IMG/VR virus record: IMGVR_UViG_3300045421_000110
Coordinates: 1-35,575 of that record
Length of the DNA stretch: 35,575 nt
Reading direction: 5' to 3' (one strand)
Origin: a virus
The notes beneath the pieces are model-generated. The model made no database searches and was not told where the DNA came from. It saw only the letters and a list, made by a program, of their open reading frames with translations. Position numbers and translations under genes: made by a program. Below are positions 1 to 35,575 of this stretch, in pieces; within the stretch, counting starts at the first letter, position 1; each line of letters opens with the position of its first letter.

Positions 1-127
1 ATCTCGTTCGGCTTCAGCGCCCCCATGTTCCAAAGGGCCTGGTACAGGGCGGCGCGGCTCGCGTCGTCTCCACGCAGGAGGCCGCGCATGTCGAACTTCG
101 CGTAGACGTCCTCCCCGTAGACGTCCT
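1..127. repeat. Terminal direct repeat, copy 1 (identical to 35449-35575)
   Basis: Base-by-base comparison of the first 127 nt with the last 127 nt shows identity. The repeat lies inside the portal coding sequence. Confidence 0.95.
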
Positions 128-1130
128 GCAGAGCCATGTTCAGCGGCTCGGCCATCCGGTGCGACCACGGCAGCAGGCACCACACCTGAGCGGACAAATG
201 CTCCTGCTCGGCGTTCGAGTACTTCGCCATCTTGTGGTCGCCGAGAAGCGTGCTCGGGACGCCCCAGTGGCGACACACCTCGGGCAGCATCGACTCGCGG
301 AGTTCTTGGTACTGGCTGGCCTCCATCGAGTTAGATTCGATGGTCTTGATCCGCGTCTTCCGCGGGAGCAGGGCGGCCCGGCCGCGGTTCTCGGCACCGC
401 CGTACGCGGCCGCGAGATCCGCGAGCAGCTGCTGGGCGGCGGCGTCCGGGATCTTCTCGTCTGTCTCCAGTACCATGTCGGGCCGCGCAGAGTTCCGCCA
501 GAACTCCACGGCCGCGACGTCGAGTTGACGCGCCAGCCGGATCGACGACGCCATGATCCGGCCCGGCTTGATGCCGATCACCCCGTCGTTCGAGACCCAA
601 TTCCAGTGCAGGACCTCGCTCTGCTCGAGCGTCTCGGTCTTCCCTGTGAACGGGTCTTGGTAGACATAGGACCGCGTGAATCCGGGCAGGACCTTCACGA
701 CCACGCGGGCCGGGTGCATGGGCTCCAGCGTGGTCATCCACCCGCGGCTGCCCGACCTGATCCGCGAGAAGCCGACGCCGTGTAGGGCGGTCCAGTAGGC
801 CATTAGGCCGTAGAAGGCAAAGCCCGTCATCGACGGGTTCGGTCGCTTCCGCAGCGTGTAGGAGCAGGGGAGCGAGACGTGGGACTTCCTGCCGTCGGCC
901 CCCTCCTGCATCGTGTGAACCGGGCAGACGCCGATGGCCTGCGAGAGGAACCGGCAGACCGCGAAGATGTTTGTGACGGTCGCGGCCGTCTCGGGGTTCA
1001 CCGCCTGCGAGAGCGACGCCCACACGTGGTTCGGGTCGGTCAGGGCGGCGCGGACCGCCGTCAGCCGATACGACTCGCCGCGGGACTTCTTCGGCGCGGG
1101 GGTTCGCTTCTTTGCGGGATGGCCGGCCAC
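1..1130 (-). CDS. Portal protein, HK97 family, N-terminal part (ORF open through the left edge; continues at 35448-35316 after circular closure, about 420 aa in total)
   Basis: This frame is absent from the supplied track because it has no stop inside the window. Hand translation from GTG 1130 (GAGGG 8 nt upstream) gives VAGHPAKKRTPAPKKSRGESYRLTAVRAALTDPNHVWASLSQAVNPETAATVTNIFAVCRFLSQAIGVCPVHTMQEGADGRKSHVSLPCSYTLRKRPNPSMTGFAFYGLMAYWTALHGVG. The RPNP.MT...F motif is typical of HK97-type portals. The frame is in phase with the C-terminal fragment at 35316-35537. The start codon is uncertain. Confidence 0.85.
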   Translation of the reverse strand, partial: MAGHPAKKRTPAPKKSRGESYRLTAVRAALTDPNHVWASLSQAVNPETAATVTNIFAVCRFLSQAIGVCPVHTMQEGADGRKSHVSLPCSYTLRKRPNPSMTGFAFYGLMAYWTALHGVGFSRIRSGSRGWMTTLEPMHPARVVVKVLPGFTRSYVYQDPFTGKTETLEQSEVLHWNWVSNDGVIGIKPGRIMASSIRLARQLDVAAVEFWRNSARPDMVLETDEKIPDAAAQQLLADLAAAYGGAENRGRAALLPRKTRIKTIESNSMEASQYQELRESMLPEVCRHWGVPSTLLGDHKMAKYSNAEQEHLSAQVWCLLPWSHRMAEPLNMALQDVYGEDVYAKFDMRGLLRGDDASRAALYQALWNMGALKPNE

Positions 1131-1182
1131 GGATGGACCCTCGGGGTCCGGCCATTTTCACGGCGTGGACGTTCCACGGTTT

Positions 1183-8986: not shown

Positions 8987-9030
8987 GGGAAATCCTTTCT
9001 TCGATGCTGCTTATCGCAAGCGTTCGCTGG

Positions 9031-9818: not shown

Positions 9819-9868
9819 GTCATCGTCTCCGAGGATCGCTCGCGAGTCTCATTCGCTCGCATGGCCCC

Positions 9869-10053: not shown

Positions 10054-10095
10054 GAACCACGCGATGCTGCGGACGAGCCGCTCATCGCATCGTTC
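10054..10095 (-). repeat. Structured intergenic repeat, copy 2 (42 nt)
   Basis: gaaccacgcgatgctgcggacgagccgctcatcgcatcgttc. It lies 4 nt after the methyltransferase stop. The fold is the same as copy 1, and the differences are concentrated in the loop and inner stem. Confidence 0.7.
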
Positions 10096-10099
10096 TCCC

Positions 10100-10867: not shown

Positions 10868-10917
10868 GGTGAATCCTCCGTGAGCGGCTGCTCATCGGAA
10901 TCGTTCGGTTTCTGTGG

Positions 10918-11358
10918 TCACTTCGTCCGCGTCAAAAGCCCGCGAAGGGTGGCCACACACCGATCGCTGGCTGGCTCTCCGTCCTGCTCGTAGTCCTCAA
11001 TGAGCCGCTGAATCTCGGTTCGCTCCGCGTCAGTGAGCCGCAGCCTCCTCACTTCCCGCACGAGCCGCTCCACGATGTCCGCAGCATCCGGCACGCAGTA
11101 CTCGTCTCCGCACACGCACTTGTCCGGCAGCACTTCGCGAGCCGCAAGGCGAATCGCGTCGTCCATTTCGGCCTCGTCCGCGTTTGCCTGCGTCGCCGCA
11201 CGCCGCAGCCTAGCGATCTCCTCCCGCTGGTCCTTGAGGTCGCCCATCAGGCCAATCTCCTGGACGTGCGACTCGTCGAAAAAAATCTCAATCGTCGATC
11301 GGTCTGGTTTCGGCATTTCAGACCGCTCGCCTGCGTCTTCCATTTTGTCATCGTCCAT
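10918..11358 (-). CDS. Hypothetical acidic protein
   Basis: Start taken at MDDDKMED (ATG 11358, after the RusA stop at 11370); the longer track ORF overlaps rusA. Coiled-coil-like, with no motif recognised. Confidence 0.5.
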   Translation of the reverse strand: MDDDKMEDAGERSEMPKPDRSTIEIFFDESHVQEIGLMGDLKDQREEIARLRRAATQANADEAEMDDAIRLAAREVLPDKCVCGDEYCVPDAADIVERLVREVRRLRLTDAERTEIQRLIEDYEQDGEPASDRCVATLRGLLTRTK

Positions 11359-12853: not shown

Positions 12854-13103
12854 CCGTGGCCTCCTTCCGTAGTCTGGCCTGCACCTTGTAGAGCAGGTCC
12901 GACGCCTCCTTCAGCGTCAGCCGGCCGTCGTCCATCGCGTCGAGGATCATCCCCTGCACACCGATCGGTGGCCGGCTGGCAGACGGCACCATCACGTCCG
13001 GCGAGAACTTCATGCCCCCCACCGGGTGACGGAGCCGCAGGTCGTCGAGCGGGGCGCACTCGACCAGGGCGGCGAAGTCGGAGTAGGGGGTGGGGGTGGT
13101 CAT
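12843..13103 (-). CDS. Hypothetical protein (86 aa)
   Basis: Ordinary composition, coupled to its neighbours. Confidence 0.45.
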   Translation of the reverse strand: MTTPTPYSDFAALVECAPLDDLRLRHPVGGMKFSPDVMVPSASRPPIGVQGMILDAMDDGRLTLKEASDLLYKVQARLRKEATGGR

Positions 13104-13105
13104 TG

Positions 13106-13672
13106 TCAGCTTCGCGTAACGATCGGCTTTTCAACCGAGAAGCCGAGCGGACAGTTCTCGTTGGCGATCGTGGTATTCGTTTTGTGATGCCGGCGAAATG
13201 GTTGCTCAGTGAGCGTGTCGGGGTGAATGTCAAACCTCACGAGCCGAACAAGCTGCTCAAGAGAGACCTCTTTCTCCACCAAGAATCCATCGCGGCTCAT
13301 GTCAAAGCGACACCACTTTATCCATTCGGAATCCAGCGGTGTCGTTCCGCTCATACGAACAACTGCGACCCCGAAGTTACGCAACGTCTGACCACGCCAC
13401 TTGATCGCCTTCAGTGTCGTTGCCTGCTTTTTGCGGTATGTGTCTCTCTGGCTGTCTGTGAGCGATCCACCGCGAGTCTTTACCTCGAGTTCAATCATCG
13501 ACTGAACTTCTCGCGTTCCGCTTCCGTCAACGACGCTAATGTAGCGATGCACAAACGTGTCGACGTCTGTCTGAACCCACCCGCAATCGCTGGAGAACGA
13601 AGGCAAATCGAGACACGACCGGCACCACGCCATAAAAGGAACATCGGAACCAAAAACCCTATCTCGCGTCAT
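13106..13672 (-). CDS. PD-(D/E)XK superfamily nuclease candidate (VRR-NUC-like pattern)
   Basis: QTDVDTF...MIELEVKTRGGSLTDSQRDTY...G....FGVAVVR gives a D...ExK...Q...G order. AT-richer than the flanks. The ATG overlaps the methyltransferase stop (ATGA). Confidence 0.4.
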   Translation of the reverse strand: MTRDRVFGSDVPFMAWCRSCLDLPSFSSDCGWVQTDVDTFVHRYISVVDGSGTREVQSMIELEVKTRGGSLTDSQRDTYRKKQATTLKAIKWRGQTLRNFGVAVVRMSGTTPLDSEWIKWCRFDMSRDGFLVEKEVSLEQLVRLVRFDIHPDTLTEQPFRRHHKTNTTIANENCPLGFSVEKPIVTRS

Positions 13673-14817
13673 CGGACTGCCTTCGTGATTCGCTCGCTTG
13701 CGCGAGCTAGGTTCGCTTCGTCGATCTCAAACGCAGCCCACTTCCTTCCGAGAGCTATGCACGCCGCTGGAGTTGTTCCACCGCCGCAAAACGGGTCAAC
13801 AACAAACCCATCCGGCTCCGTGAGCAGCTCAATGAAGTAGCGGGCCTCGGCCTCGGACTGCTGCCACTCGTGGTGCGACTTCTCTCTGGTGCCGGTGGCG
13901 ACGTCGTTGACGAACGTCGTCTTGTCTCCGCGTGTCTCCTTCACGAACCAGAGCATCGGCTTCCATCCGTTCACGATTCCGTACTCGTTCATACGGAGCA
14001 GGGTCGGGCCGCTGTGGTAACACGAGCACGTCCACCAGTACCGTAGATGCTTCGACAGGTCTGCGACTGCGTCCGGGAGTTGGATCTGTCCGATGTAAGC
14101 GATCAGGCTTCCGCCTGGACGAAGCACGCGAGAGGCGAACGCACCGAGTCCGTCGAACAACTCGATCGCCTTCCGGTCGTACGGAGGATCTGTGAAGATC
14201 AGGTCAACCGAAGCATCCGGTATCTTGTGGCCGATCTCACGGAAGTCGCCGTGATACAGGCCGTCGACCTTGCGGCGACGTTTCTTCGCCTCCTCCTTCT
14301 CGGCGTCGCGCTTCTTCGCTTGCGACTCCTCGCGAATCTCAGCAACGCACCGCTTGCAAGAGAAGTCCTTCCCGGCCTCTGTCGCGGCCGCGGCCTTGGC
14401 GTCGATCTCCTCCGGCGTCAGCGCCAGCAGCTTCACGCCGGCAGCGGCGATGTCCTTAGATATTCCAAGGTCAGCCAAGGTCGTCTTGGTCGATCTTGAA
14501 TCGCCAAGATCGTCTGATTCGATCTTGCTTCTACTCCCGCCATGTTTCGCCAATACCCCCTCCTCGCGGAGACGTTGGGTCACTTCGCCAACCTTGCGGA
14601 CGGCCTTTGAGTGAGATGCCCCGCACCGGTTTTGCACAGAACGGCTGGCGTCCACTTGCTTGGCAAGCAGGCGACACGCCGCGGCCATGTCGTACGCACG
14701 CAACACCTCGTCCGGCTCAAACGCAGTGGCGATGGCATGCTCAACTTGAGCCTGAGTTCTCTCGATCGACTCTGCCGTCACCTTGGACACTCGATTCCTT
14801 GCCAGAGCCTTACCCAT
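13669..14817 (-). CDS. DNA methyltransferase, beta-class N6_N4 type, motif IV DPPY, with an N-terminal extension of about 200 aa
   Basis: Start at MGKALARNRV (ATG 14817). Motif IV LIFTDPPYD, then motif I VVDPFCGGGTT. The N-terminal domain is unassigned. Confidence 0.85.
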   Translation of the reverse strand: MGKALARNRVSKVTAESIERTQAQVEHAIATAFEPDEVLRAYDMAAACRLLAKQVDASRSVQNRCGASHSKAVRKVGEVTQRLREEGVLAKHGGSRSKIESDDLGDSRSTKTTLADLGISKDIAAAGVKLLALTPEEIDAKAAAATEAGKDFSCKRCVAEIREESQAKKRDAEKEEAKKRRRKVDGLYHGDFREIGHKIPDASVDLIFTDPPYDRKAIELFDGLGAFASRVLRPGGSLIAYIGQIQLPDAVADLSKHLRYWWTCSCYHSGPTLLRMNEYGIVNGWKPMLWFVKETRGDKTTFVNDVATGTREKSHHEWQQSEAEARYFIELLTEPDGFVVDPFCGGGTTPAACIALGRKWAAFEIDEANLARASERITKAVR

Positions 14818-15037
14818 TCCCAGCCTCCTTTTTGGTGTTCTCCCGCCTCTGAATCTCCCGCCGGATGTACCACTCCGCTTTCCGCAGATCCTCGATCGCG
14901 TCACCCTTCAAGCCGGCCCGCCACAGATACTTCACGGCGTTCCCGACGTTGAACGTGAAGTGTTCCGCAATAGTCACACACTCCACGCCGCTCGGGTGAG
15001 CGTTGTAATGTGCCGGGTTGTTGACATTGTCGACCAT
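14810..15037 (-). CDS. DUF3310-family phage protein
   Basis: NPAHYN...ECV.I......F..GNAVKYLWRAGLKG...EDLRKAEWYI. ATG 15037 follows a GGGAGGAAG RBS. Confidence 0.7.
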   Translation of the reverse strand: MVDNVNNPAHYNAHPSGVECVTIAEHFTFNVGNAVKYLWRAGLKGDAIEDLRKAEWYIRREIQRRENTKKEAGNG

Positions 15038-15054
15038 AGTCACTTCCTCCCGTT

Positions 15055-15285
15055 TCACCCGTCCGAATCTGCCGGCGACCGCGGTAAGTACTGGACCTCG
15101 TAGCGAGCGGGGGCCAGCTTCGCCTCGAGGTCTGCGGCTCGCTGCCGCAAGTACTGGATCTCGCGGATGTACGCCTCGCGGTGCTTGTCCCAGTGCAGGA
15201 CGTACTGGGCGTAGAGCTCATGCCCTGCCGCTGCGAGAGCCGCGGAGACTTCTTGCGGCGTTGGCTCAGAACGGGATGTCGTCAT
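15055..15285 (-). CDS. Hypothetical protein (76 aa)
   Basis: Start at MTTSRSEPTPQE (ATG 15285, GGAGGG RBS). The longer track ORF is an R-rich shadow. Helical, coiled-coil-like. Confidence 0.5.
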   Translation of the reverse strand: MTTSRSEPTPQEVSAALAAAGHELYAQYVLHWDKHREAYIREIQYLRQRAADLEAKLAPARYEVQYLPRSPADSDG

Positions 15286-15781
15286 CCGTCCCTCCGCTGG
15301 CCGCCGCGTCGGCCTTCTGCTTCGGCGTCCGCTTCGCGACCGGCTTGTTGCCGGCGGCCGGCGGGGCCACGGCACGCTCCACGGGCGGGTTCGCCGCGGC
15401 ACCGTTCGCCGGCTGGAATCCATTGATCCAGATGCGGCGATTGCCCAGCTCGTCCACAACCGGCATGCCTTCCTTGTCGATGGCTTGGCGGGTGACGACC
15501 ACGACCTCGCGGCCGATCAGGTCGTCCGGCTCGAGACCGTCGCCGGCCCGCAGCCCGAGAGCCGCCGCCATCTTCATGGCCGCGGCGTGGTCCCGCTGGA
15601 CCTCCGGGTCCAGAAACTTCCCGAACTCCGCGTAGTCGCCAACCTTGAACGTCACGATCAGGGCCGACCGACTGCCGTCCTTGCTCGTCCAGTTCTTCGC
15701 CTTCGTGATCGTCGCGACGTGCGCCCCGTCCGGGACCGCCGTGCCTTCCGTGCCGTCATCCTCGAACTTGTCGAACCTCAT
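15266..15781 (-). CDS. DUF669-like single-strand DNA-binding-type protein with an SSB-style acidic tip
   Basis: Start at MRFDKFEDDG (ATG 15781 in an ATGA overlap). The C-terminus is GGTDDDIPF, the canonical SSB protein-interaction tail. It is a neighbour of a Sak4-like ATPase. Confidence 0.65.
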   Translation of the reverse strand: MRFDKFEDDGTEGTAVPDGAHVATITKAKNWTSKDGSRSALIVTFKVGDYAEFGKFLDPEVQRDHAAAMKMAAALGLRAGDGLEPDDLIGREVVVVTRQAIDKEGMPVVDELGNRRIWINGFQPANGAAANPPVERAVAPPAAGNKPVAKRTPKQKADAAASGGTDDDIPF

Positions 15782-16044
15782 ACCGCATCTCCTTCGCTTA
15801 GGGTTTCTGCCATCCGTGTCGCGGCCTCGATGACCGCTGCCATGTGCTGCCGACCGTATCGACGGCGGCCGTACTTCTTTTTTGGAACCGGCAGGTCCGC
15901 GACCGCTCGCAGAACCTGCCACCGCGTGAACCGGACGCCGGCCCTCTGGCTGGCGTCGATGAGGTCTGAACACCGGTACCAGTCGCGCGGTGCCGACGTC
16001 TCGCCCCGCATCGTGGAGAAAGACGCGTGCCAAGGGCCGGTCAT
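15778..16044 (-). CDS. Hypothetical protein (88 aa)
   Basis: ATGA overlaps at both ends support translation. No motif recognised. Confidence 0.5.
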   Translation of the reverse strand: MTGPWHASFSTMRGETSAPRDWYRCSDLIDASQRAGVRFTRWQVLRAVADLPVPKKKYGRRRYGRQHMAAVIEAATRMAETLSEGDAV

Positions 16045-17897: not shown

Positions 17898-18200
17898 TCA
17901 GCGTCCAGTAACTCGCGAGATCATGTCAGAGACCTCGCCCTTCGTGGCACCGAATGGGATCTCGATGCCGAGAGACTCGGCGTAGGCGATCTGCCGGACG
18001 GTAGGCGGATCACCACGCCACGCGTTCGGCCGCCTCGGCCACGAGAGCCACGCGCCGACGATGCACGTGACGCCGAACGCGGCCACCATCCAGCGTGACG
18101 ACTCGCGAACGGTGGCGGCGAGGATCAGCAGCACCAAGCCGAACAGGCCCATGAGTGCGCAGGCCACGACGCGAACGACGTAACGCAGCCAATCGTTCAC
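17898..18200 (-). CDS. Two-pass membrane protein with a soluble C-terminal tail
   Basis: Hydrophobic stretches VVRVVACALMGLFGLVLLILAA and WMVAAFGVTCIVGAWL, then PTVRQIAYAESLGIEIPFGATKGEVSDMI. GTG start with a GGGAG RBS. Confidence 0.6.
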   Translation of the reverse strand: MNDWLRYVVRVVACALMGLFGLVLLILAATVRESSRWMVAAFGVTCIVGAWLSWPRRPNAWRGDPPTVRQIAYAESLGIEIPFGATKGEVSDMISRVTGR

Positions 18201-18213: not shown

Positions 18214-18465
18214 TCAGGCCGCCGCCCCGGATCGTGGCCGGCCGCCCCTCTTCTTCCGCGTGGCGGCCTTCTGCTTCGCGAGACGTTTCACTTCGTCGAG
18301 CACAAAGTAGACCTTCCGCGGAGACTCGACGTAGGGCTTCAGCTCGCCAGCCTTGACGAGCATGGTGATGTTGGACCGGCCGCAGCCGTAGATCTTACAG
18401 GCCTCGGCGGTGCAGACGAGCTTCTGGCCGGTTGTCGGATGGATGACCACTTGCATAGAGCCCAA
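18214..18465 (-). CDS. Small HTH DNA-binding protein (excisionase/Cro-like)
   Basis: LVCTAEACKIYGCGRSNITMLVKAGELKP...YFVLDEVKRL plus a basic tail. The TTG start at 18465 has GGAGGGGG 7 nt upstream; ATG 18456 is an alternative. Confidence 0.6.
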   Translation of the reverse strand: MGSMQVVIHPTTGQKLVCTAEACKIYGCGRSNITMLVKAGELKPYVESPRKVYFVLDEVKRLAKQKAATRKKRGGRPRSGAAA

Positions 18466-18552
18466 AAATAGGCCCCCTCCGTCGCTCGTGCAAGGAACAT
18501 TTGCCCCCCCGCCCCCATGCGTCTATAGGGTGGATTGGTGGCGGAAGGCTGA

Positions 18553-18587
18553 GCCGGTGCGATCCCTTCTTGAGGATTCGCACCGGC
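18553..18587. other. Strong hairpin in the int upstream region
   Basis: GCCGGTGCGA (18553-18562) pairs perfectly with TCGCACCGGC (18578-18587). It extends with ATCC/GGAT and one bulge. A second hairpin CAAGGATG-CAT-CATCCTTG at 18698-18716 lies just before the int RBS. Confidence 0.5.
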
Positions 18588-18731
18588 CCAAGTGGCGGGG
18601 GCAGGAGTCAACCTGCCGCCGACGGCACGACCGCCACAGGCGGCACCGGCGGAGCGGCGCTGCCGGGGAAACCGGACGAACCGGAACCCCTCTCGAGCAA
18701 GGATGCATCATCCTTGGCGGAGGAGGTTCCC

Positions 18732-19607
18732 ATGTTGCTCGACGCGTTTTTGTCTGACGTCTACGTGCCCTTGAAACTCCGCGGCCGATCACCGGAGACG
18801 ACGCGTCTCCTGCGGCACGCGATCCGTTTCTTCTCGCGGTGGCTGGGCAGGCCGGCCGTGCTCGAGGACCTCGACGACCTCGTCGTCGCCCGGTACCTGT
18901 CTGCCAGGGCGGAGACGTTGAAGCCGAACTCCGTCGCCCGCGAGCGGTCTGCGCTCGTCGCGCTGTGGAACATGGCGCAGGCCCGCGGCCTCGTGCGGTG
19001 CCGGCCGTGTGTGGCCCCGGAACTGATCCCCGAGGCCATCCCGCGGGCGTTCACGGTCGACGAGCTGGCCCGACTGTGGGCGGCCTGCGGCGAGGCCCGC
19101 GGGTGGATCGGCCCGATCCCGGCCGGCGTATGGTGCCAGGCATTGTGCGGCACGCTCTTCTACACGGGCGAGCGGATCACGGCCCTCTTGTCGGTGCCGC
19201 CCGACGGCTGGCGGTCCCCGTGGCTGGCGGTGCCGGCGACTTCACGCAAGGGCAGCCGGCGGCCGATGGTGTACGAACTGCCGCCGCACGTGGCGGCACT
19301 CGTCGAAAAGGCCTCGCGTCACGAGGGGCCGGTCCTGCTCTGGTACCCGGCGACGGAGGCCGCGCTCCGCAAACGATGGCACGTGATCACCCGAGCGGCC
19401 GGGCTCGGCGACGGGCCGGACGTCCAGTTTCACGCCCTGCGCCGGTCGTTCGCGTCGCACCTGGACGCCGGTGGCGGCGACGCCCGGCGGTCCCTTGGAC
19501 ACTCGTCAGAGCGGGTGACGCGGCGGTACCTCGACCCACGGATCACCGGCGCCGGCCAGCCGGCAGATTGGACGCGGCTCCCGCGGATATGGCCCGAGGT
19601 CGGCTGA
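18732..19607 (+). CDS. int: Tyrosine recombinase / phage integrase
   Basis: Start at MLLDAFLSDVY (ATG 18732 after GGAGGAGG). C-terminal HALRRSFASHL...LGHSS..VT.RYL. The longer track ORF adds a G/P/R-rich extension. Confidence 0.9.
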   Translation: MLLDAFLSDVYVPLKLRGRSPETTRLLRHAIRFFSRWLGRPAVLEDLDDLVVARYLSARAETLKPNSVARERSALVALWNMAQARGLVRCRPCVAPELIPEAIPRAFTVDELARLWAACGEARGWIGPIPAGVWCQALCGTLFYTGERITALLSVPPDGWRSPWLAVPATSRKGSRRPMVYELPPHVAALVEKASRHEGPVLLWYPATEAALRKRWHVITRAAGLGDGPDVQFHALRRSFASHLDAGGGDARRSLGHSSERVTRRYLDPRITGAGQPADWTRLPRIWPEVG

Positions 19608-21942: not shown

Positions 21943-24393
21943 CTATGACGAGATACCGAACTCCGTTTCCTGCTCGCCGCTGGCGCGGCGAATCGTCAAT
22001 CGCTTATTCGGCCCGCTTGGCCCCACCCACCAGTGAGCAGGCTGCGGCATCGGTTGCCCCGTCGCCTGCGATGCCGCCACGCGCTCGTCAACCCAATCCA
22101 CGACGCCTAGCGTTGGCTCGAACCAACTCACCGGCTCGCCGCTTACGGTGCTGACCGATCGGCATGAGTTGTCCTCCCACCCTGCCGGATAGGTCGTGAC
22201 GTCCACGGGCGGATCGAGCTTGGTCGGCAGCTCGTCCTCCGTGACCTCGTAGTCCTGCCGGTAGAACGCTCCGCCGTGGCCGAGCGAGATACTCGACGGC
22301 ACGGGCCGGTAAAACTCACCGGGATCGCCGATCGTGACTGTCCACCTGTTCGGCGTGCCCGTCGTTTCTTGATCGCCGAACTCATTGACGCGGTACGAAT
22401 AGAGCGTGACCTCTGCCTGCCGGACCACCACCACCCCGGCCTGCGTTTTCACCGTGAGACTGACCGACGTGCCAATGGGAATGTCAGGCCACCCGAATGG
22501 CTGGGTGTGTTTCCAAACGTGGATGATTGCCCCATAGCCGAGCGCCGGCCCGCCGAAGCCCTCTAAGGAAGTCAGGACACCTCCATCGTCGATCACGCCC
22601 CACACCGCGTTCGGGTCGGCGAACCGCTGGGAATCGGCTGGCAGGATCGAGTAGCGACGCACCCACGCCCCCCACGAAACAGTCAGCGTCGGCCCGCCGA
22701 CAAGCGTCACCGTGAACCCCGGCAGCGTGACCTCCGTCACACCGTCTGGCATGACGAGGACGGGGGCCGATGCCGGCGGCGCGTGATCGACGTTGATCCA
22801 CCCGTAGGCATTTCGCTCACAGAGCGTGTCGGCGCTTCTTGCGAACGTGATCGGCGTCCCTCGCTCGATCTCTTGCGTCGGCACCTCGACCGATGCCGTC
22901 CAGTATTGCTTCGCCCCGGCGCCGGCTGGGATCATCGTCACTTCCAAATCGACCACACCGTCGATCCCCTGTGCGGTCGCCGTCACTTCGGGTGCCGACC
23001 TCGTCCTTTCGACGCGGTACTGAGTCTGGCCGATGAATCGCTTCTGCGACTTCGCCCCCAGCGTGATCGAGCCGAATGACGCCACGCCTGGGTAGAGCGT
23101 TGGCGCGAGCGTCGTCGTGATCGAGGAGACTCGCCCCATCGCGTTGATCGTGGCGGTGCCTTGGTTCAACGCCACAGTCGAGCCGTTGCGGAATAGGTAG
23201 ATCGGTCGCGTCGTGTTTGGCGGGTAGCCTTCGCCACCATCCACCAACTCGATACTCGTCACCGGCCAGCCGCGAGCGCCTCCCGCACCAATCACCGCCG
23301 ACTCGCCGAATGTAACGCTCAGCGTGGCCGGGGTCGTGGGGTTGCCGAAGAAGGCGCTTGGGGGTCCGACGGTCGGGTCTGTGTAGACGCGGGCAACGAG
23401 CGGCGGCGGGGAGTGGCCGGTCGATTCCCAGCCAAGATCAAGATAGTCGTTCGGGCCGGCGATCAAGTTGTACGGCCCGTATCCATAGATGCCGCGATCC
23501 ATGTAGGTCGTGTGGACTCTCGTGCCGTTGATCGGCCGCACGCGAAAGACTGTGCCGTACTCGTACCCCGTGCCTGGCGAGTCCACCGTGATCGTGTCGA
23601 TCTCCCACCAGGGATTGCCGGCCAGGTCGGCGTGCTGCAGCCACGACAACGTGAACGACGCACCGCTGCCGCTGCCTTGGCCGAAAAGCTGGATCTCAAC
23701 CTCCGGCGGCACACGATGCCGGTACGGCAGGGCGCGGTAGCGCGTCTCGAGCAGTGACGCCGCTCCGGTCGCGGAGATCCAACTCCACTGCTCGACGGCC
23801 CAGTTCGCCTCCCCCTCGACCCACGCGACGTGGGACCAATACTGCCCGAAAGCGCCCGTCTGCAGTGAGTCGAACGGACGCGGCTGGGCCGGCGTCCACA
23901 GTGGATGGTTCGCATGCGCCGTGCCGAATCGCCCCCGCGGCCCCCACGTGCCACACAGTCCGACCTCCAGGCCGGCGCCGTTCTGCTCGTAGAGTCCGGG
24001 GTCGATTCCCGATATTCCGCTGCCGGTTCCGCCGAGCGACGTGTCGTTGACCCACGACGTTTCTTCGCCAACCCGCACCGTGTCAACAAGAAGGCTTGCC
24101 GTCCCCGGCGTGCCCCACGGTCCACCCCCGACAAACCCCTCACCGACCCACGTGACCGCCACGCACCCCGTCGTGCCGTCGATCCCAGCCGACGCCGTGA
24201 ACGTCCTGGGCGTGTTCGCCGTCATGGTGCGCGACGAGATCGGATTGGACTCACCATCCGGCGGCGAAGGAAGCCACTCCTCACGCCGCATCTCGCCAGT
24301 GCCCGACCCCGTTGTCATTGACACGTTGATCGTGGCCGCGCGCGGCCACGTGCAGGCGCACCCACAGCACAGACAACCAGGCAGCATGATCAT
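21943..24393 (-). CDS. Large tail tip / baseplate-type structural protein (about 816 aa)
   Basis: Its position is two genes after the tape measure. It is long and Gly/Thr/Val-rich with no enzymatic motif recognised. The preferred start, ATG 24393, overlaps the upstream stop; this gives the N-terminus MIMLPGCLCCGCACTW. Confidence 0.6.
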   Translation of the reverse strand: MIMLPGCLCCGCACTWPRAATINVSMTTGSGTGEMRREEWLPSPPDGESNPISSRTMTANTPRTFTASAGIDGTTGCVAVTWVGEGFVGGGPWGTPGTASLLVDTVRVGEETSWVNDTSLGGTGSGISGIDPGLYEQNGAGLEVGLCGTWGPRGRFGTAHANHPLWTPAQPRPFDSLQTGAFGQYWSHVAWVEGEANWAVEQWSWISATGAASLLETRYRALPYRHRVPPEVEIQLFGQGSGSGASFTLSWLQHADLAGNPWWEIDTITVDSPGTGYEYGTVFRVRPINGTRVHTTYMDRGIYGYGPYNLIAGPNDYLDLGWESTGHSPPPLVARVYTDPTVGPPSAFFGNPTTPATLSVTFGESAVIGAGGARGWPVTSIELVDGGEGYPPNTTRPIYLFRNGSTVALNQGTATINAMGRVSSITTTLAPTLYPGVASFGSITLGAKSQKRFIGQTQYRVERTRSAPEVTATAQGIDGVVDLEVTMIPAGAGAKQYWTASVEVPTQEIERGTPITFARSADTLCERNAYGWINVDHAPPASAPVLVMPDGVTEVTLPGFTVTLVGGPTLTVSWGAWVRRYSILPADSQRFADPNAVWGVIDDGGVLTSLEGFGGPALGYGAIIHVWKHTQPFGWPDIPIGTSVSLTVKTQAGVVVVRQAEVTLYSYRVNEFGDQETTGTPNRWTVTIGDPGEFYRPVPSSISLGHGGAFYRQDYEVTEDELPTKLDPPVDVTTYPAGWEDNSCRSVSTVSGEPVSWFEPTLGVVDWVDERVAASQATGQPMPQPAHWWVGPSGPNKRLTIRRASGEQETEFGISS

Positions 24394-24740
24394 CACGAGC
24401 ACTCCGCAGCCACGACGTACCATCGTCCGTTTCCGTGGAGCGCCACCGACACCCACTTCCCGGCATGGATCGTGGCGTATTTGTTGACGACGTCCTCGAC
24501 GGTCGCCCCGGTCGTCTGCGTTTCGCTCGGCGGCGTGCCGTCCTCCCAAACGTTCAGCGTCGCGACCGTGCCCTTCGTGAAGGTGCTCGTCGTCTTACAG
24601 AGCCGGTGGGGCGTGTCGTCGCCGCCTTGGCGGAACCGCACCGGCGGCATGTCACGGTTGCCGCCCTCGACTGCCTTCACGGCGCGGCCGATCCGCTTCG
24701 CGGCGTCCTCGGTGAATGCGACCTTGCGAGCCTTCGCCAT
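24393..24740 (-). CDS. Hypothetical tail protein (115 aa)
   Basis: Lies between the Dit-position gene and the large tail protein. Coupled starts and stops. Confidence 0.5.
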   Translation of the reverse strand: MAKARKVAFTEDAAKRIGRAVKAVEGGNRDMPPVRFRQGGDDTPHRLCKTTSTFTKGTVATLNVWEDGTPPSETQTTGATVEDVVNKYATIHAGKWVSVALHGNGRWYVVAAECS

Positions 24741-30697: not shown

Positions 30698-31924
30698 TCA
30701 CGGGGTCTTGGCGAGACGAGCAACGAACGAGGGACCGTTGTTGACGAGGCCCATCCGGGTCGACGCCACGAACAGCGTCTGCCGGTTCCGCACGAGGAGT
30801 TCCTTCGCTACGGTGATGTTCACGCCCTCCTGACCGAGCCCGATGGCGGTCGACTTCGAGAAGTCGCCGTACAGGGCGTAGGTCGTCGAGGGCATGCCCT
30901 TCGCGATGTAGACCGGGGCGCCGAAGATCGTCGGCACCACGCGGCCGCCACCGACCGTCATGGTCGTCTGCTGGGCCGACCACAGCTTCATCAGGTCGAC
31001 GTACCCACGCTTCGAGGCGACCCACGTCCCGGTCCCCATGATCGTCTCGTCAACCAGGCCGACGACGTCGGCGAGGTTGGCGAGGGTCGTGAGGGCCGCG
31101 CCGGTCGCGACCGTGATCGTCTGGCCGCCCGACACCGCGGCCGGCAGGCCGGTGATCGTCGGGTTCGAGCCGTTGCCGGACAGCCACACCGTGTCGTACC
31201 AGACGGCCATGCCGTACGAGATGCGGTCGGCCACGAGGCCGGCCACGTCGATCGGGCTGTCGTTCAGGAGGGCGTTCGACACCGCGACCGATCCGCCCGC
31301 CTCGTAGAGGGTCAGGTCGGACGACGCGGTCGCGAGGTCCTGATCCGTGAAGGCGGTGCCTTCCGCGGCGAACCCGACGGTGAAGTTGCCGGAGGTCGGC
31401 AGCTTGATCGTCATCGAGTTCGGCCGGTAGATCGACGCGACCTGCAGCGCGACGCTGCGGTACTGCAGGAGGTTCACGATCGCGGCGTTCAGTTCTGCTA
31501 CCACGTAGGAGTCGCCGAAACCGCTGGCCGTCTCGCCCATGGCCCGGGTGCTGACGCCGGCCATCCGGCAGAGGTAGGCACCGACGGCCGCGGCGGCCTT
31601 CTTCGACCGGAAGGCCTTGACGCCGGACGCGAGGTCCGGGACGTACTCGTCGGCCGTCTCGCTGGCGTCGGCCGGCAGTTCGCGCTGCTCGCCCTTCGTG
31701 CTCGACGTGTGCACGGCCCGGATGGCGGCCACCCGGGCGTCGAGATCGTGCTCGGCCTTCGCCGCGGCGGCGACCTCTTCGGATCGCTTCGCGGCGGCCT
31801 CGAGTCGGCTGGCGATGTTCGCCGCGTCGGCCTCGTCCTTCGGCTCGATCGCACGCAGATCGGCGATCGTCTTTTCGAGAGTCACGGCCTCATCCTGCAG
31901 GCGGGCGAGCTTGGGCGACGGCAT
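30698..31924 (-). CDS. Major capsid protein, HK97 fold, with an N-terminal coiled-coil (delta/scaffold-like) region
   Basis: Start at MPSPKLARLQ (ATG 31924, GGAAGGAA RBS). About 100 aa of helical, acidic N-terminus are followed by a capsid-type body. Synteny supports the call. Confidence 0.85.
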   Translation of the reverse strand: MPSPKLARLQDEAVTLEKTIADLRAIEPKDEADAANIASRLEAAAKRSEEVAAAAKAEHDLDARVAAIRAVHTSSTKGEQRELPADASETADEYVPDLASGVKAFRSKKAAAAVGAYLCRMAGVSTRAMGETASGFGDSYVVAELNAAIVNLLQYRSVALQVASIYRPNSMTIKLPTSGNFTVGFAAEGTAFTDQDLATASSDLTLYEAGGSVAVSNALLNDSPIDVAGLVADRISYGMAVWYDTVWLSGNGSNPTITGLPAAVSGGQTITVATGAALTTLANLADVVGLVDETIMGTGTWVASKRGYVDLMKLWSAQQTTMTVGGGRVVPTIFGAPVYIAKGMPSTTYALYGDFSKSTAIGLGQEGVNITVAKELLVRNRQTLFVASTRMGLVNNGPSFVARLAKTP

Positions 31925-31992: not shown

Positions 31993-32319
31993 TCACCGTT
32001 TTCCGGTGGGAGGATTTTTGGGGCACGCTCCGGTCGGGCAGTCAGCGGCCGCGCCCTTCTCTCGCTCGGCCACGCACCGCCGGCACCGGCACTCGCACTT
32101 CTGCGTGATGCGACCGTCGGGCTTCCAGAGGCCCTTGACGCACGTTTCACCACAGTCACACGACTTCGGCGTCGGGGTTGGAGCCGGCCGCGAGTCCTTG
32201 AGCATGGATGCGTGCGCCACGCTCACAGCGGCCGCGGCCCGCGCGTGCTCGAGATTCACGACAGCGGGGTCGGCAGAGAACCACACCAACCACGAAATGA
32301 TCCAGCGCCAGAGCAGCAT
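31993..32319 (-). CDS. Small protein with an N-terminal hydrophobic anchor and a Cys-rich C-terminal domain
   Basis: MLLWRWIISWLVWF, then CDCGETC...CECRCRRC...C....C, giving nine Cys in the last 55 aa. Confidence 0.55.
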   Translation of the reverse strand: MLLWRWIISWLVWFSADPAVVNLEHARAAAAVSVAHASMLKDSRPAPTPTPKSCDCGETCVKGLWKPDGRITQKCECRCRRCVAEREKGAAADCPTGACPKNPPTGKR

Positions 32320-32321
32320 GA

Positions 32322-32600
32322 TCAGAGCCCTCGCACGTGGTTCACGATCGGGAACCCGTCGTCGCCGAGCTCGGCCGGCGAGGACCGCACGACACGCTCG
32401 CGTTCCTCGATCGCTTCAGGCGATTGCTCGGGCGGTGCCGGCTCGAAGAACGCCGCGGCCCACAGGAGGTTCTTGGCGGCGCTGATGACCCACCGCAGCA
32501 CGGGCCGAGACGGGGCCGGCGTCGGGGAGACGTCGGCACCACCGGCCCAGTAGGCGAGGAGAACGACGGCGACGATGCACGCGAGCGAACGACGAGACAT
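32322..32600 (-). CDS. Small secreted/membrane-anchored protein (92 aa)
   Basis: ATG 32600 is 5 nt after GAGGTGA. MSRRSLACIVAVVLLAYWAGGA looks like a signal or anchor, followed by a Pro-rich linker. Confidence 0.55.
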   Translation of the reverse strand: MSRRSLACIVAVVLLAYWAGGADVSPTPAPSRPVLRWVISAAKNLLWAAAFFEPAPPEQSPEAIEERERVVRSSPAELGDDGFPIVNHVRGL

Positions 32601-32610
32601 GGCGATCACC

Positions 32611-33777
32611 TCAGAGGGCTAGGGACTGGATCTGAACCGGCGTCGTGCCCTGCGGCGAACCGCGCCGCGTCGGTGCCGGCTCGGGCGGCGCGGGTCCGAT
32701 GAAGGCACCGTTGTCGAGATCGCGCCAGCCGAAACCGGTGACGGAGCCCACCGCGAACGAGTCCTCGCCAGAGAGCATCCGCTCCACGGTCGCACGCTTC
32801 ACCCAGAACGAGCCGTCGGGCATGTCGGCCGGCCACTTCGGCCCACCGATCCACGATGGCCCCCAGCTGTTCAGGCAGAGGAGGCCGTCATCGGGACTGC
32901 CGTTCTTCTTGTAGCGCACGCCGACGAAGCACATGCAGTGAGCCCACGAGCCCTGGGCGGCCGCGAAGCCGGCGTCGTTCCGCTGGGACGCGAAGCCCTG
33001 CCCGGAACAGACGGGGATCGGGAATCCCGACTCGATCGCGGCGGCCGCCTCGGTGAACGTCTTCACGATGGCGACGTGGGTGGCCGGGTGCTTCTTCGCT
33101 TCGGCGTCGAGCTTGCCGCCGTCGCCCTTGCCACCGCATCCGTACGCGCCCCATTCCTTCGCCCGGTCGGCGGAGTAGGTCGTGAGGTCGAGCGACCCGT
33201 AGCGGTCGCGGTAGATCACGCCCCACTGACGAACCCACCGAGCAGCTGCGGCACCATACGACCCGTCGCTGTACCCGCCGACGGGACTGCGGCCGTCGCC
33301 CGACTTCCCGCGGGCCTCGACTCGCGAGCCGCCGTAGATCGCTTCGGTGCTCGGGAACGGTGGCGGGTTGGCGAGTCGGCCGGTCTCCCAATCGACACAC
33401 TGGGCGACGTAGATACCGTGCGCCCAGCCCCAACTGACGCAGTCGCCGATGCCCTGCCGGCCGACCACGAACGGCTTGCCGTACAACGCTTGGTGCGCCT
33501 TGTACGCGGCGCGGTACAGGAACGTGTCAGCCCCCTTCGCCTCGCGGAGAGCCGCGGGGCCGGCCTCGGCGAACGTCGGCTTGTCCAGTTCGCGGAGGAA
33601 CCGCCGGACGCCGTCCGGGTTCGGCGTCCATCCTTGAGGCTGGCCGTCGTCACCCATCACCGGGATCGGTCGCGGCGCGCGTGGCACGTACTGCTCGCCG
33701 ATGATGATGCCGAGCGAGACGGCGATCACCGCGACGATCGAGAACCAGTAAACCGCAGCCTGGATCCGGTCCTTCAC
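32611..33777 (-). CDS. Papain-like (clan CA, C1-like) cysteine peptidase with an N-terminal signal-anchor
   Basis: Transmembrane stretch AAVYWFSIVAVIAVSLGIIIG. RQGIGDCVSWGW resembles QG.CGSCW (Gln/Cys). WAHCMCFVGV resembles H....VGY. CLNSWGPSW resembles NSWG..W. All are in papain order. Confidence 0.7.
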   Translation of the reverse strand: MKDRIQAAVYWFSIVAVIAVSLGIIIGEQYVPRAPRPIPVMGDDGQPQGWTPNPDGVRRFLRELDKPTFAEAGPAALREAKGADTFLYRAAYKAHQALYGKPFVVGRQGIGDCVSWGWAHGIYVAQCVDWETGRLANPPPFPSTEAIYGGSRVEARGKSGDGRSPVGGYSDGSYGAAAARWVRQWGVIYRDRYGSLDLTTYSADRAKEWGAYGCGGKGDGGKLDAEAKKHPATHVAIVKTFTEAAAAIESGFPIPVCSGQGFASQRNDAGFAAAQGSWAHCMCFVGVRYKKNGSPDDGLLCLNSWGPSWIGGPKWPADMPDGSFWVKRATVERMLSGEDSFAVGSVTGFGWRDLDNGAFIGPAPPEPAPTRRGSPQGTTPVQIQSLAL

Positions 33778-34346
33778 TTGACGTACCTCCCGGCCTCACG
33801 GGCCACCGTGCGGAAGGCCGCGATCCACTTCGCCTTCTCCTCGGGCGTCAGCGGCCCGCCGGACGTGCCGGCCGCGGAGTCGAGGTATCGCTTGATCTCC
33901 GCCCGCACTCGCGGGTGGCGGTCGCCGATCGAGTCGCCCTTCAGCCGCATGTCGAAGGCCCGCGTCCGCAGCTCGTCGAACGCGATGCCGGTCGTGATGT
34001 CGGGCTCGGCCTGGTCGGCGTCCCACTCGACGTCCGAGGCGATCTCGTCGAACAGGGCCTCGACCCTCGCGGTATCGGCGGCCGCCTCGGGGTGCGCCGC
34101 CCACAGGCCGGCCAGGCTGATCGGGCTGTCGGGCGGAGTCGGGGCCGGCGTCGGCGTTCGCGACCCACGGCCGCCGAGCAGGAGCAGCAGGGCCAGGGCG
34201 ACCATCCCGGCGGCGATGACGTGCCGGAACTGAACGGCCGGGTACTTCTCGCGGAAGGCCGCGAGCCACGCTTTGGCCTTGGCCGCGTCCACGAACTGCG
34301 AGGCGGCGGCGAAGAGAAGAGCGATTCCCAACAGCGTCTCGATCAT
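33774..34346 (-). CDS. Two-transmembrane-segment membrane protein with a 130-aa soluble C-terminal domain
   Basis: LLGIALLFAAASQFV and VIAAGMVALALLLLLGG. ATGA overlap with the protease stop and GTGA overlap with the peptidase start. Confidence 0.6.
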   Translation of the reverse strand: MIETLLGIALLFAAASQFVDAAKAKAWLAAFREKYPAVQFRHVIAAGMVALALLLLLGGRGSRTPTPAPTPPDSPISLAGLWAAHPEAAADTARVEALFDEIASDVEWDADQAEPDITTGIAFDELRTRAFDMRLKGDSIGDRHPRVRAEIKRYLDSAAGTSGGPLTPEEKAKWIAAFRTVAREAGRYVK

Positions 34347-35326
34347 CGTCCGGTTCCTCCTGTGGCGATCCGCATCCGGGCCGCCGCGGCTGCTGCCGCG
34401 GCACGGGCACCCGCGAGCGTGGAGACGGCAACCGGCGTCTTCCGCTGCTCGGCGATGCCCTCTGGGTAGTCGTCGATCCAGATGTCGACCTCGAGGCCGG
34501 CGGCCGCCGCGGCCGACCGCTTCTTCTGGCCGGCACCGCAGAGCAGGATCTGGGGGACGTCCAGACCGTCGAACGCGAACCGCAGTTCATCGCGGTTCTG
34601 TTCGGTGTCTTCGCGGCGAGAGATGCACACCACGCGGTTCCCGCGGGCGGTGGCATCAGCCACGAACGAACGCCACAGGCCGGTGGCCGCGGCGAACGTC
34701 CGATCGTAGTCGATGGAGATGACGAGCCCGCGGTCGCCGGCCCGGTTCTCCACTACGCGGCGGTTCGCCTTCCACGCCTCGATCGACCTGAGGCCGATCG
34801 ACGACTGGGGGTATGCCGGATAGGTGACGGCCGAGATGTCGAACAGGCCGGACGCCCGGAACACCGTGCGGATCACGTTCCCCTTCGCGTCCTCGGTCCA
34901 CGTCTCGCCGTCGGGGGCCGCCGTGAACGCGAACGACGCGCCGGTGACTGTGCGGTCCTCGACGAGCTTGACGAGGTCCCGGCCGTGCGTCGTGTCGACC
35001 GGGGTGTGCCGGTAGCCGAGGCCCTTGAGGTCCTTCCTGATCTCCAGACGGCCGTTTGTCGTTCGCCCGGAGATCAGGTGCGACTGATGGTCGAACAGGA
35101 ACGGGACGTCGATCTTGCCGCGATGGTCGTTCGGCGCTCGGTCGACCAGGCCGTCGAACGCGGTCGGCGCGAACTTCTCGCGGAAGCCGCCGAGGTCCAC
35201 CGAGAGCGAGTCCCACGGTGGCGAGATGCCGACGAGCACGGGCGGTTCGCCGTCTCGCTTTTCGACCGTGATCGCGTCTGGGTAGTCGTTCAGCAGCAGA
35301 TACCGCCGCTCGTGGTCATTGGCCAT
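34343..35326 (-). CDS. HK97-type prohead protease (S78/U35) fused in frame to a HAD-like phosphatase-fold domain
   Basis: Protease part: FLFDHQ (His) and TGASFAF (Ser), ending at SAVTYPAYPQ. C-terminal part: ISIDYDRT (DxDxT), VVCIS, GQKK and WIDD in HAD motif I-IV order. No stop lies between the two parts. Confidence 0.75.
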   Translation of the reverse strand: MANDHERRYLLLNDYPDAITVEKRDGEPPVLVGISPPWDSLSVDLGGFREKFAPTAFDGLVDRAPNDHRGKIDVPFLFDHQSHLISGRTTNGRLEIRKDLKGLGYRHTPVDTTHGRDLVKLVEDRTVTGASFAFTAAPDGETWTEDAKGNVIRTVFRASGLFDISAVTYPAYPQSSIGLRSIEAWKANRRVVENRAGDRGLVISIDYDRTFAAATGLWRSFVADATARGNRVVCISRREDTEQNRDELRFAFDGLDVPQILLCGAGQKKRSAAAAAGLEVDIWIDDYPEGIAEQRKTPVAVSTLAGARAAAAAAAARMRIATGGTGR

Positions 35327-35575
35327 TGGTTGACCCTCCAGTCGTGATGGCCGGCGTCGCGTTCGTCCCGAGCGGGGCGAATCCCTGCTGCACGTACGTG
35401 AGATCCGCGGCCGGATCGTCGAGGAGGTCCATGTCCTCGAGGTCGCGGATCTCGTTCGGCTTCAGCGCCCCCATGTTCCAAAGGGCCTGGTACAGGGCGG
35501 CGCGGCTCGCGTCGTCTCCACGCAGGAGGCCGCGCATGTCGAACTTCGCGTAGACGTCCTCCCCGTAGACGTCCT
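35316..35575 (-). CDS. Portal protein, C-terminal part (continuation of 1-1130 across the circular junction)
   Basis: ...LLRGDDASRAALYQALWNMGALKPNEIRDLEDMDLLDDP... is the typical portal C-terminus. Same frame as the hand-translated 1-1130 ORF after subtracting 35,448. Confidence 0.85.
   Translation of the reverse strand, partial: DVYGEDVYAKFDMRGLLRGDDASRAALYQALWNMGALKPNEIRDLEDMDLLDDPAADLTYVQQGFAPLGTNATPAITTGGSTNGQ
35449..35575. repeat. Terminal direct repeat, copy 2 (identical to 1-127)
   Basis: Same comparison as copy 1. The sequence diverges immediately outside (35448 is unique sequence). Confidence 0.95.

Follow-up and report, generated by a model that had tools for sequence, protein, structure and literature searches.

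A conserved phage gene module with a membrane-anchored papain-fold protease and a cysteine-rich partner, a candidate lysis system of planctomycete phages

PeiW and PeiP show that phages can evolve specialised cysteine peptidases where the host has a non-standard wall, and clan-CA cysteine peptidases are established endolysin domains. V-CATH of baculoviruses is a virus-encoded C1 protease that is kept inactive together with a partner protein until infection ends, when its release liquefies the host. Cysteine chemistry also acts in classical phage lysis: a disulfide-based 'caging' controls the activation of the P1 endolysin Lyz (PMC6116005, PMC9025707), and spanins depend on disulfide bonds as well (PMC6139136). 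Here, we describe a cassette of four genes, termed A–D, in the virus record IMGVR_UViG_3300045421_000110 (positions 1 to 35,575, analysed in full and hereafter called the window). Its central product, B, is a signal-anchored protein with a predicted papain-like fold. With somewhat better than even confidence, we read A–D as a phage lysis module in which a periplasmic cysteine protease takes the place of the 'endolysin' and is accompanied by a thiol/disulfide partner.

The cassette consists of four co-directional open reading frames (ORFs) on the minus strand: A (33774–34346, 190 amino acids (aa)), B (32611–33777, 388 aa), C (32322–32600, 92 aa) and D (31993–32319, 108 aa). All four had been called in a preliminary description of the window and were found again at these positions. 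The flanking genes named there were confirmed by Pfam as well, namely an HK97-type serine prohead protease of family S78 (34343–35326 (–), 327 aa; Peptidase_S78, E 3.5e-28; PHROG 80, head maturation protease) and an HK97-fold major capsid protein (30698–31924 (–), 408 aa; Phage_capsid, E 7.5e-26; PHROG 10). The GC content at third codon positions was 0.80–0.94 in the cassette ORFs (A 0.94, C 0.85) versus 0.69 overall, which is the coding signature of the window genome. The tight coupling noted earlier was verified: the protease stop overlaps the start of A (ATGA), the stop of A overlaps the start of B (GTGA), and C and D are separated by 2 nt. The spacing between B and C amounts to 10 nt, with C starting at the ATG at 32600 behind a GAGGTG Shine–Dalgarno sequence, while the alternative GTG start at 32609 (95-aa model) lacks such a sequence. 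A gap of 68 nt separates D from the capsid gene, whose true start, ATG 31924, also carries a Shine–Dalgarno sequence, as does every cassette junction. At least 13 further contigs from several samples belong to this phage, and gene calls made on them independently gave the same lengths, 327/190/388/92/108/408 aa from the protease to the capsid protein. A scan of the coding strand revealed no promoter- or terminator-like sites in the cassette. Translational coupling and the lack of an own promoter or terminator thus indicate, as a prediction from the sequence, that A–D are co-transcribed with the late head genes. The hydrophobic N-terminal segment that had been attributed to every product was clear in A, B and C, whereas that of D is weakly hydrophobic.

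Protein B can be divided into a signal anchor (aa 8–26), a disordered Pro-rich linker (aa ~30–48) and a peptidase domain of ~310 residues (aa ~49–357). The anchor is one strong helix with a Kyte–Doolittle (KD) value of 2.5; over 120 homologs, the median was 2.43 and the Gly/Ala/Ser/Thr fraction 0.37. This strongly hydrophobic composition led us to reject a signal-arrest-release (SAR) domain, as the segment resembles a stable signal anchor. In B and its homologs the N-terminal side of the helix is net positive, a charge pattern that indicates an N-in/C-out topology and would place the catalytic domain in the periplasm.

The AlphaFold model of B (pLDDT 82, pTM 0.79) yielded 82 Foldseek matches in the PDB at E ≤ 1e-3, and the best 50 of these 82 were all C1 peptidases, with xylellain (3ois, E 7e-9) in first place followed by many cathepsin B entries (target-normalised template-modelling score ~0.6). 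Among the viral models of BFVD, the top matches carried the label Peptidase_C1 and came from giant viruses and uncultured tailed phages. Q108, C113, H280, N303, S304, W305 and G306 were invariant in 31 homologs, and the order and motif context of Q108/C113/H280/N303 correspond to Gln19, Cys25, His159 and Asn175 of papain. The codons from the oxyanion-hole Gln108 to the catalytic Cys113 (motif QGIGDCVSWGW) lie at 33439–33456 (–), and those from the catalytic His280 (WAHCM) through Asn303-Ser-Trp-Gly, which includes the catalytic Asn, at 32869–32940 (–). Sequence searches with B returned nothing from Pfam at E < 0.1, including Peptidase_C1 (PF00112), and nothing significant from PDB sequences by phmmer or profile. 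B thus qualifies as a predicted clan-CA, papain-like protein by modelled structure and catalytic residues, not by any curated sequence model. Together with the helix at aa 8–26, these results bear out the earlier assignment as a signal-anchored papain-like peptidase. Since fold and catalytic residues agree while the sequence models remain silent, B founds a very divergent new family within the C1 fold. An exhaustive search returned at least 1,277 clusters at 50% identity, and more than 1,327 homolog clusters at 60–84% identity were all labelled 'hypothetical'. Cys113 was kept in 120/120 homologs and Cys301 was 98% conserved; these are the only conserved cysteines of B in this set, and a caging disulfide between them is a matter of speculation.

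Many longer B homologs (480–1,207 aa; P0122–P0243) contain inteins (Hint + LAGLIDADG). The insertions occur at GIGD|C before Cys113 (window 33439–33441), at WAH|C after His280 (32938–32940) and at NSWG| after Gly306 (32860–32862). All three sites fall within catalytic motifs, and some homologs hold two inteins. Fusion partners could therefore not serve as a functional clue, as the extra length of the long homologs is made up of inteins, not of functional domains. Such an intein hot spot is unusual in a phage protease and indicates strong constraint on the catalytic motifs of B.

Protein A showed two clear transmembrane helices (aa 2–19 and 40–58), a Pro-rich linker and a four-helix bundle (aa ~88–186), in line with the two-transmembrane protein described earlier, whose soluble domain of ~130 aa we place at ~115–130 aa. 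The K/R-rich loop between the helices suggests that this soluble domain lies outside the cytoplasm. AlphaFold modelled the bundle confidently (pLDDT 86 for A). Foldseek against the PDB gave generic helical bundles without a significant fold match (best E 3.0), and the A profile found nothing significant among PDB sequences. As a holin candidate, A offers two transmembrane domains (TMDs) and a position next to B, but it carries a periplasmic bundle of ~115 aa and matches no Pfam or PHROG family.

Protein C was confirmed as an anchored protein with one N-terminal helix, and its length of 92 aa was repeated in independent assemblies. The anchor covers aa 1–19 of the 95-aa GTG-start model (~aa 6–19 of the 92-aa product; KD 1.9). 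It is followed by a conserved amphipathic helix (RPVLRW..AKNLLW) and by an extreme C-terminus of the form DG[YFH]x[ILV][ILV][DEN][HN][GA]xG[WL]-COOH in 79 distinct sequences, the window version being DGFPIVNHVRGL. Viewed as an i-spanin, C has the N-terminal TMD and ~70 periplasmic residues. In one sub-lineage, a Gly-rich membrane protein of 85–88 aa and Transgly_assoc type (GlsB/YeaQ/YmgE) is encoded between C and D (e.g., L019 8949–9206, L009 3791–4057; Pfam E 1.3e-4, under the curated cut-off of the family); loci of this sub-lineage with a C–D gap of ~270 nt include L048, L060, L063 and L080–82.

Protein D starts with a short hydrophobic N-terminus ending FSA|DP, continues with a conserved Ala-rich helix (ARAAAAVSVAHASM) and a Pro-rich linker, and ends in a Cys-rich domain with the pattern CxCx3C...KPDGR...CxCxCx2C...CPxGxCP. 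The preliminary description of D as an anchored Cys-rich protein stood with regard to its 9 Cys in 108 aa; its N-terminus (WIISWLVWFSA), in turn, is only weakly hydrophobic and would better suit a short signal peptide than a membrane anchor. An assignment as o-spanin was rejected: D has no lipobox, and its N-terminus (MLLWRWIISWLVWFSADP) is Cys-free, while homologs are likewise Cys-free or have AxA signal peptides. The D homologs form 776 clusters of ~100 aa, and some of them contain a DnaJ-type CxxCxGxG motif. The D profile gave nothing significant against PDB sequences (weak likeness to the bL31 zinc ribbon, E ~0.3), and a test of the window D for a thioredoxin fold or CxxC found no Thioredoxin match in Pfam. 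In Bremerella and Blastopirellula prophages (L014, L016, L018), D is replaced by a protein, D′, that combines a classical AxA signal peptide and the same Ala-rich helix with a Thioredoxin_7 domain (WCPAC or WCPYC). The gene order in Blastopirellula marina DSM 3645 and Bremerella cremea JCM 17758 is H–TM–A–B–C–D′, with TM for a small transmembrane protein. This exchange in cultured prophages points to a redox theme of the module, from which we infer a redox activity of the Cys-rich D. The first interpretation of the cassette did not include this theme.

To survey the module, hidden Markov models (HMMs) of the individual members were run on 122 loci, which are not all independent; the ratios given below refer to loci with enough room for the gene in question. 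A was located directly upstream of B in 96/96 loci, C directly downstream of B in 100/100, and a Cys-rich D downstream of B in 87/92. A fifth gene, H, which encodes a ~120-aa core with two C-terminal amphipathic or hydrophobic helices, preceded A in 87/90. H–A–B–C–D is thus a conserved, horizontally mobile five-gene module, present in over 100 loci from metagenomes and prophages that nearly all belong to Planctomycetia, and the window, one of only three loci lacking H, carries its rare H-less form. An HMM search detected no H hidden elsewhere in the window, and an assembly artefact was dismissed, as the H-less layout is identical in at least 13 independent contigs. In L009, L013, L007 and L019, a ~50-aa ORF with a CxxC...CxxC zinc ribbon lies upstream of H and overlaps the protease/H junction (e.g., L009 1364–1516), possibly a small regulator; it is absent from the window.

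Mobility was apparent from sequence identities and positions. B was 62–64% identical between genomes whose terminase large subunits shared 36%. Within the lineage, B showed ~70% identity versus 58–65% for terminase large subunit, protease and capsid, and A, C and D showed 35–55%. Among 42 loci that could be judged on both flanks, 26 had the order protease–module–capsid, and in the remaining 16 neither head gene was nearby. The earlier view of an unusual insertion into a head module was thereby overturned: the slot is typical of the lineage and the module is recurrent. In Blastopirellula marina the module stands directly upstream of the gene for the terminase large subunit, in L004 and L039 directly downstream of capsid-like genes, and in the genomes with the closest B homologs (80–84% identity) after RusA and replication genes. 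Further positions were next to tail-fibre, integrase or HNH genes.

The slot between protease and capsid, the position after capsid-like genes in L004 and L039 and a strong conservation like that of structural genes would also fit a role in head morphogenesis, for example the membrane-associated processing of a capsid or scaffold component. We regard such a role as very improbable. Tailed-phage heads assemble in the cytoplasm, and the products are directed out of it, as indicated by their signal anchors or Sec signal peptides and by the periplasmic thioredoxin partner; the capsid protein has its own scaffold in the form of an N-terminal, coiled-coil delta-like region, and the phage encodes a dedicated S78 protease. 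Moreover, a module devoted to heads is difficult to reconcile with the non-head positions in 16/42 loci and with the location of the closest B homologs behind replication genes.

In genomes of GTDB, B carriers were overwhelmingly Planctomycetia, among them metagenome-assembled genomes (MAGs) of Pirellulales and Planctomycetaceae. Isolates with the gene are Bremerella cremea (two loci), Blastopirellula marina DSM 3645 and Schlesneria. The few MAGs from other phyla with B are most plausibly explained by mis-binned phage contigs. The close B branch comprised at least 581 viral contigs in IMG/VR. When A–D, H, D′ and the small transmembrane and Transgly_assoc relatives were compared with Pfam, PHROGs and PADLOC, only Thioredoxin_7 (D′) and a weak Transgly_assoc match were obtained; PADLOC-DB models at E ≤ 0.01 gave nothing for A, B, C, D, H, D′ or a further ORF with two TMDs (see below). 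No match was found in 50,697 GenBank phages by blastn of the region or by tblastn of B and distant B. The suggestion of an undescribed system was thus upheld by its absence from Pfam, PHROGs v4, PADLOC and these GenBank phages, and our literature search found no description of the module, of planctomycete phage lysis genes or of a characterised planctomycete phage. In genomes with the closest B homologs, a gene for a Lipid_desat protein (membrane lipid desaturase/fatty-acid hydroxylase) adjoins the cassette (L203 7671–8309, L204 7811–8347), and a histidine-box protein was seen, by eye only, beside the cassette in L036 (8958–9431). This suggests that a lipid-modifying gene is an optional accessory of the cassette.

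A distant branch of B comprised ~300-aa proteins without anchor on at least 544 IMG/VR contigs. In 49/70 loci a secreted-protein gene was found at position –1 (–2 in 4/49), and the C-terminal domain of the –1 protein was homologous to the bundle of A (hhalign 92%, E 5.5e-7). A downstream gene was homologous to D (hhalign 95%, E 2e-8) and codes for a protein with a Cys-rich HGDGHRTPC motif and a thioredoxin-like CxxC domain. Small one-helix proteins precede the gene set, an order that recalls classical holin-dependent cassettes. The neighbours again are genes of module junctions (tail collar or collagen, integrase, HNH, terminase gpA), and a Pfam census of 110 neighbours of distant homologs contained no lysozyme or amidase. 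As the A–B–D trio persists in this branch, the conserved core can be described as a cysteine protease, either self-exported or leaderless, with two partners: an exported helical protein and a thiol/disulfide protein. A leaderless B would meet these partners only through a lesion in the membrane, as in classical holin–endolysin logic. On the chromosome of Novosphingobium lubricantis (L035 8714–10891), we observed a distant B homolog (33% identity) without signal peptide, preceded by a lipoprotein gene and surrounded by genes for an AmpD-like amidase, ChpT, RluD and RpoH, not by a prophage. A cellular version of the lipoprotein and B-like pair may thus exist.

The reading of A–D as a lysis module draws on the late operon, the envelope-targeted products, the combination of an enzyme with small membrane proteins, mobility at module junctions, near-universality in the lineage and elimination. 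A, C and D are exported or membrane-anchored by prediction and accompany B in essentially every relative, and lysis cassettes are typically mobile modules at module junctions. A Pfam scan of ~56 window ORFs gave no muramidase, amidase, peptidoglycan peptidase, holin or spanin family, and the only other membrane protein of the window beyond the cassette is a 100-aa ORF beside the integrase gene. The parallel to holin/endolysin/spanin cassettes drawn at the outset holds at the level of function, where lysis is the best available reading, and does not extend to any family match.

What B would cut depends on the host envelope. According to PMC12673574 and PMC8567305, the walls of Planctomycetia, long described as proteinaceous, contain abundant Cys-rich YTV-domain proteins that are restricted to this class. 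In Planctopirus limnophila, most peptidoglycan-synthesis genes are non-essential and one YTV protein is essential (PMC10632474). A Cys-rich protein wall of the hosts makes a periplasmic cysteine protease plus thiol-oxidoreductase plausible. We tentatively propose, as a possibility rather than a likelihood, that B and D dismantle a disulfide-cross-linked YTV protein wall instead of peptidoglycan, with A and C as new timing or regulatory components.

Still within a lysis function, B could be an ordinary clan-CA peptidoglycan endopeptidase (CHAP, NlpC/P60 or PeiW/PeiP-like) that cuts stem-peptide cross-links; the protein wall would then be irrelevant, and D would merely stabilise or oxidatively fold exported proteins. 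The precedent of clan-CA endolysin domains speaks for this version, as do weak BFVD Foldseek matches of B (ranks 15, 26 and 29) to phage proteins annotated as Lysin A or N-acetylmuramidase, and the distant homolog of Novosphingobium, a bacterium with a classical wall, where it adjoins a gene for an AmpD-like amidase. Planctomycetes do contain peptidoglycan, as PMC12673574 states with reference to Jeske 2015 and van Teeseling 2015. On the other hand, B is predicted to adopt a full two-lobed C1 fold instead of the minimal one of NlpC/P60 or CHAP proteins, and it showed no cell-wall-binding domain. The absence of its family from the 50,697 GenBank phages, which infect conventional hosts, would be odd for a general peptidoglycan peptidase. 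Peptidoglycan synthesis is, in addition, largely dispensable in the Planctomycetia model (PMC10632474). Of the two versions of the lysis function, we therefore judge the peptidoglycan endopeptidase unlikely and assign the protein-wall protease a higher, yet still tentative, standing.

The preliminary description had named envelope remodelling or exclusion as an alternative to lysis. The exported protease would then trim receptors, pili or components of crateriform structures, with secondary infection blocked or progeny freed from debris as the effect, and lysis would be left to unrecognised genes elsewhere. Envelope targeting of all four products is compatible with such a role. Many window ORFs have no assigned function, a second small protein with two TMDs is encoded at 17898–18200, and in some genomes the cassette is extended by a lipid desaturase or Transgly_assoc gene. 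Exclusion genes and morons, however, occur sporadically, are expressed in lysogens and usually come with a promoter and a terminator of their own. The module, by contrast, is near-universal in the lineage, lies inside the late operon coupled to head genes and lacks signals of its own; PADLOC gave no match, and the Pfam scan of the complete genome revealed no alternative lysis enzyme. This alternative is thus disfavoured, and we consider it improbable.

If A–D act in lysis, B would accumulate late in infection in membrane-tethered form together with A, whose periplasmic bundle could serve as a regulator, chaperone or inhibitor of the protease and whose two helices might supply the timing of a membrane lesion. 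D would keep or set Cys113 in a reduced, active state in the oxidising periplasm or, alternatively, open disulfide cross-links in Cys-rich YTV-type wall proteins. B would then cut a load-bearing polymer of the envelope, either wall proteins or peptidoglycan stem peptides, and C might finish the disruption of the envelope or control B through its conserved C-terminal tail. The use of a protease instead of a muramidase could be explained by peptidoglycan that is thin and largely dispensable in the hosts.

Several observations weigh against a lysis function. None of the cassette products could be matched to holin, endolysin or spanin families, many ORFs of the window lack annotation, and lysis is deduced from context and elimination. 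H, which in relatives comes closest to a holin, is absent from the window; D has no lipobox and is not a lipoprotein; and the anchor of B is strongly hydrophobic and not SAR-like, which does not account for its release or triggering. To our knowledge, papain-family (C1-fold) enzymes are not known as peptidoglycan hydrolases. Lysins normally diverge fast, and the 60–84% identity of B over more than 1,300 clusters, like its use as an intein target, is unusual for them. Repeated placement of the module within or beside head genes, as in the window lineage, L004 and L039, could hint at an assembly role, and the Novosphingobium B-like pair among housekeeping genes indicates that the family is not strictly devoted to lysis.

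Should the module prove to be a lysis system, what the phage must cut would show what holds the planctomycete cell together, so that the long debate on the planctomycete wall could be approached genetically. It would add a papain-fold protease and a thiol-oxidoreductase as a new enzyme class and accessory logic. In the protein-wall version, it would be the first protease-plus-reductase lysis system and would provide independent genetic evidence for protein, not murein, as the load-bearing wall layer. We see a realistic chance of a mechanistically new lysis type. The B family is large, yet invisible to annotation by Pfam, PHROGs and PADLOC. Possible tools include lytic reagents for hard-to-lyse planctomycetes and a marker gene by which uncultured phages could be linked to Planctomycetia hosts, and the three intein insertion sites in the catalytic motifs are a further resource.

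The genome around the cassette is complete and circular. An exact 127-nt direct repeat at the window ends (1–127 and 35449–35575) lies inside the portal gene, which is split over both ends by the assembly cut (1157..1 joined to 35575..35316 (–)); removal of the repeat gives a real size of ~35,448 bp, and a second, independent assembly of the phage measured 35,470 nt. Upstream in the late operon are the genes for the terminase small subunit (2774–3253 (–)) and large subunit (1183–2832 (–)), and the operon further contains connector and tail genes at about 21.9–30.6 kb (–). Within the tail region, an 868-aa ORF (21943–24549 (–)) without Pfam match has a Cys-dense, lipobox-like N-terminus (MIMLPGCLCCGCAC). 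The S78 protease carries an extra C-terminal domain (residues ~199–300; region ~195–327, window 34346–34744) that is kept in the relatives L010 and L019 and matches only phrog_4919/4256, both of unknown function. A HAD-like assignment of this domain, made by eye (DxDxT...DD), was dropped, as a PDB sequence search did not support it.

The remaining genes encode an integrase (plus strand), an HTH_17 protein, an AAA_24 ATPase, RusA, two DNA methylases and a metallophosphatase. The phage is temperate, and no tRNA genes were found in the window. The 100-aa ORF (17898–18200 (–)) has two strong transmembrane helices, gave no Pfam or PADLOC match and adjoins an HTH_17/excisionase-like gene (18214–18465) and the integrase gene (18501–19607 (+)). 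Its product may serve in exclusion, with expression during lysogeny, or may be a holin that has escaped recognition. Two islands of low GC content (window ~7200–11000 and ~13000–16000; 0.57–0.62 versus 0.67) are probably homing-endonuclease or mobile insertions. They contain the paralogous nuclease-like ORFs 7206–7856 and 8447–8986, which share FRSRLEA[KR]WAA.FDL.GW.W.YEP, a GIY-YIG-like ORF (7874–8404) assigned by eye and without Pfam match, and two N6/N4 DNA methylases (10100–10867 and 13669–14904).

Among known systems, SAR endolysins with pinholins (R21/S21 of phage 21; Lyz of P1) are similar in that the enzyme is self-exported by an N-terminal TMD, remains tethered in the periplasm before lysis and is encoded alongside small membrane proteins. 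B differs from them as a predicted papain-fold protease, not a lysozyme, and contains no muralytic Pfam domain; its anchor (KD 2.4, Gly/Ala/Ser/Thr 37%) contrasts with the Gly/Ala-rich, releasable SAR segment, any thiol chemistry would be provided in trans by D, and there is no sequence relationship. CHAP lysins, the N-terminal domains of mycobacteriophage LysA, and PeiW/PeiP share with B the use of a Cys–His enzyme as wall cleaver. In these clan-CA lysins, a small domain of NlpC/P60-, CHAP- or transglutaminase-like type cleaves the peptide bridges of (pseudo)murein and is usually joined to wall-binding domains, whereas B is a ~310-aa, two-lobed C1-like protein with a Gln–Cys–His–Asn tetrad, no binding domain and the obligate partners A, C and D. 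Xylellain, cathepsin B and V-CATH have the same fold and catalytic tetrad, but B is only ~12–17% identical to C1A peptidases, lacks the conserved C1 disulfides and the I29 propeptide, is encoded by a phage of bacteria and is membrane-anchored. Rz/Rz1 of phage lambda resemble C and D as two small genes that follow the lytic enzyme, the first for a protein with an N-terminal TMD and the second for a Pro/Cys-containing exported protein; D, however, lacks the lipobox Cys and ends in a 9-Cys domain or, as D′, in a thioredoxin fold, and C is short with a conserved C-terminal peptide instead of long coiled coils, with no family match. From each of these systems, A–D thus depart in at least one of the defining features tested, and we propose that this undescribed cassette falls within the phage lysis cassettes as a class.

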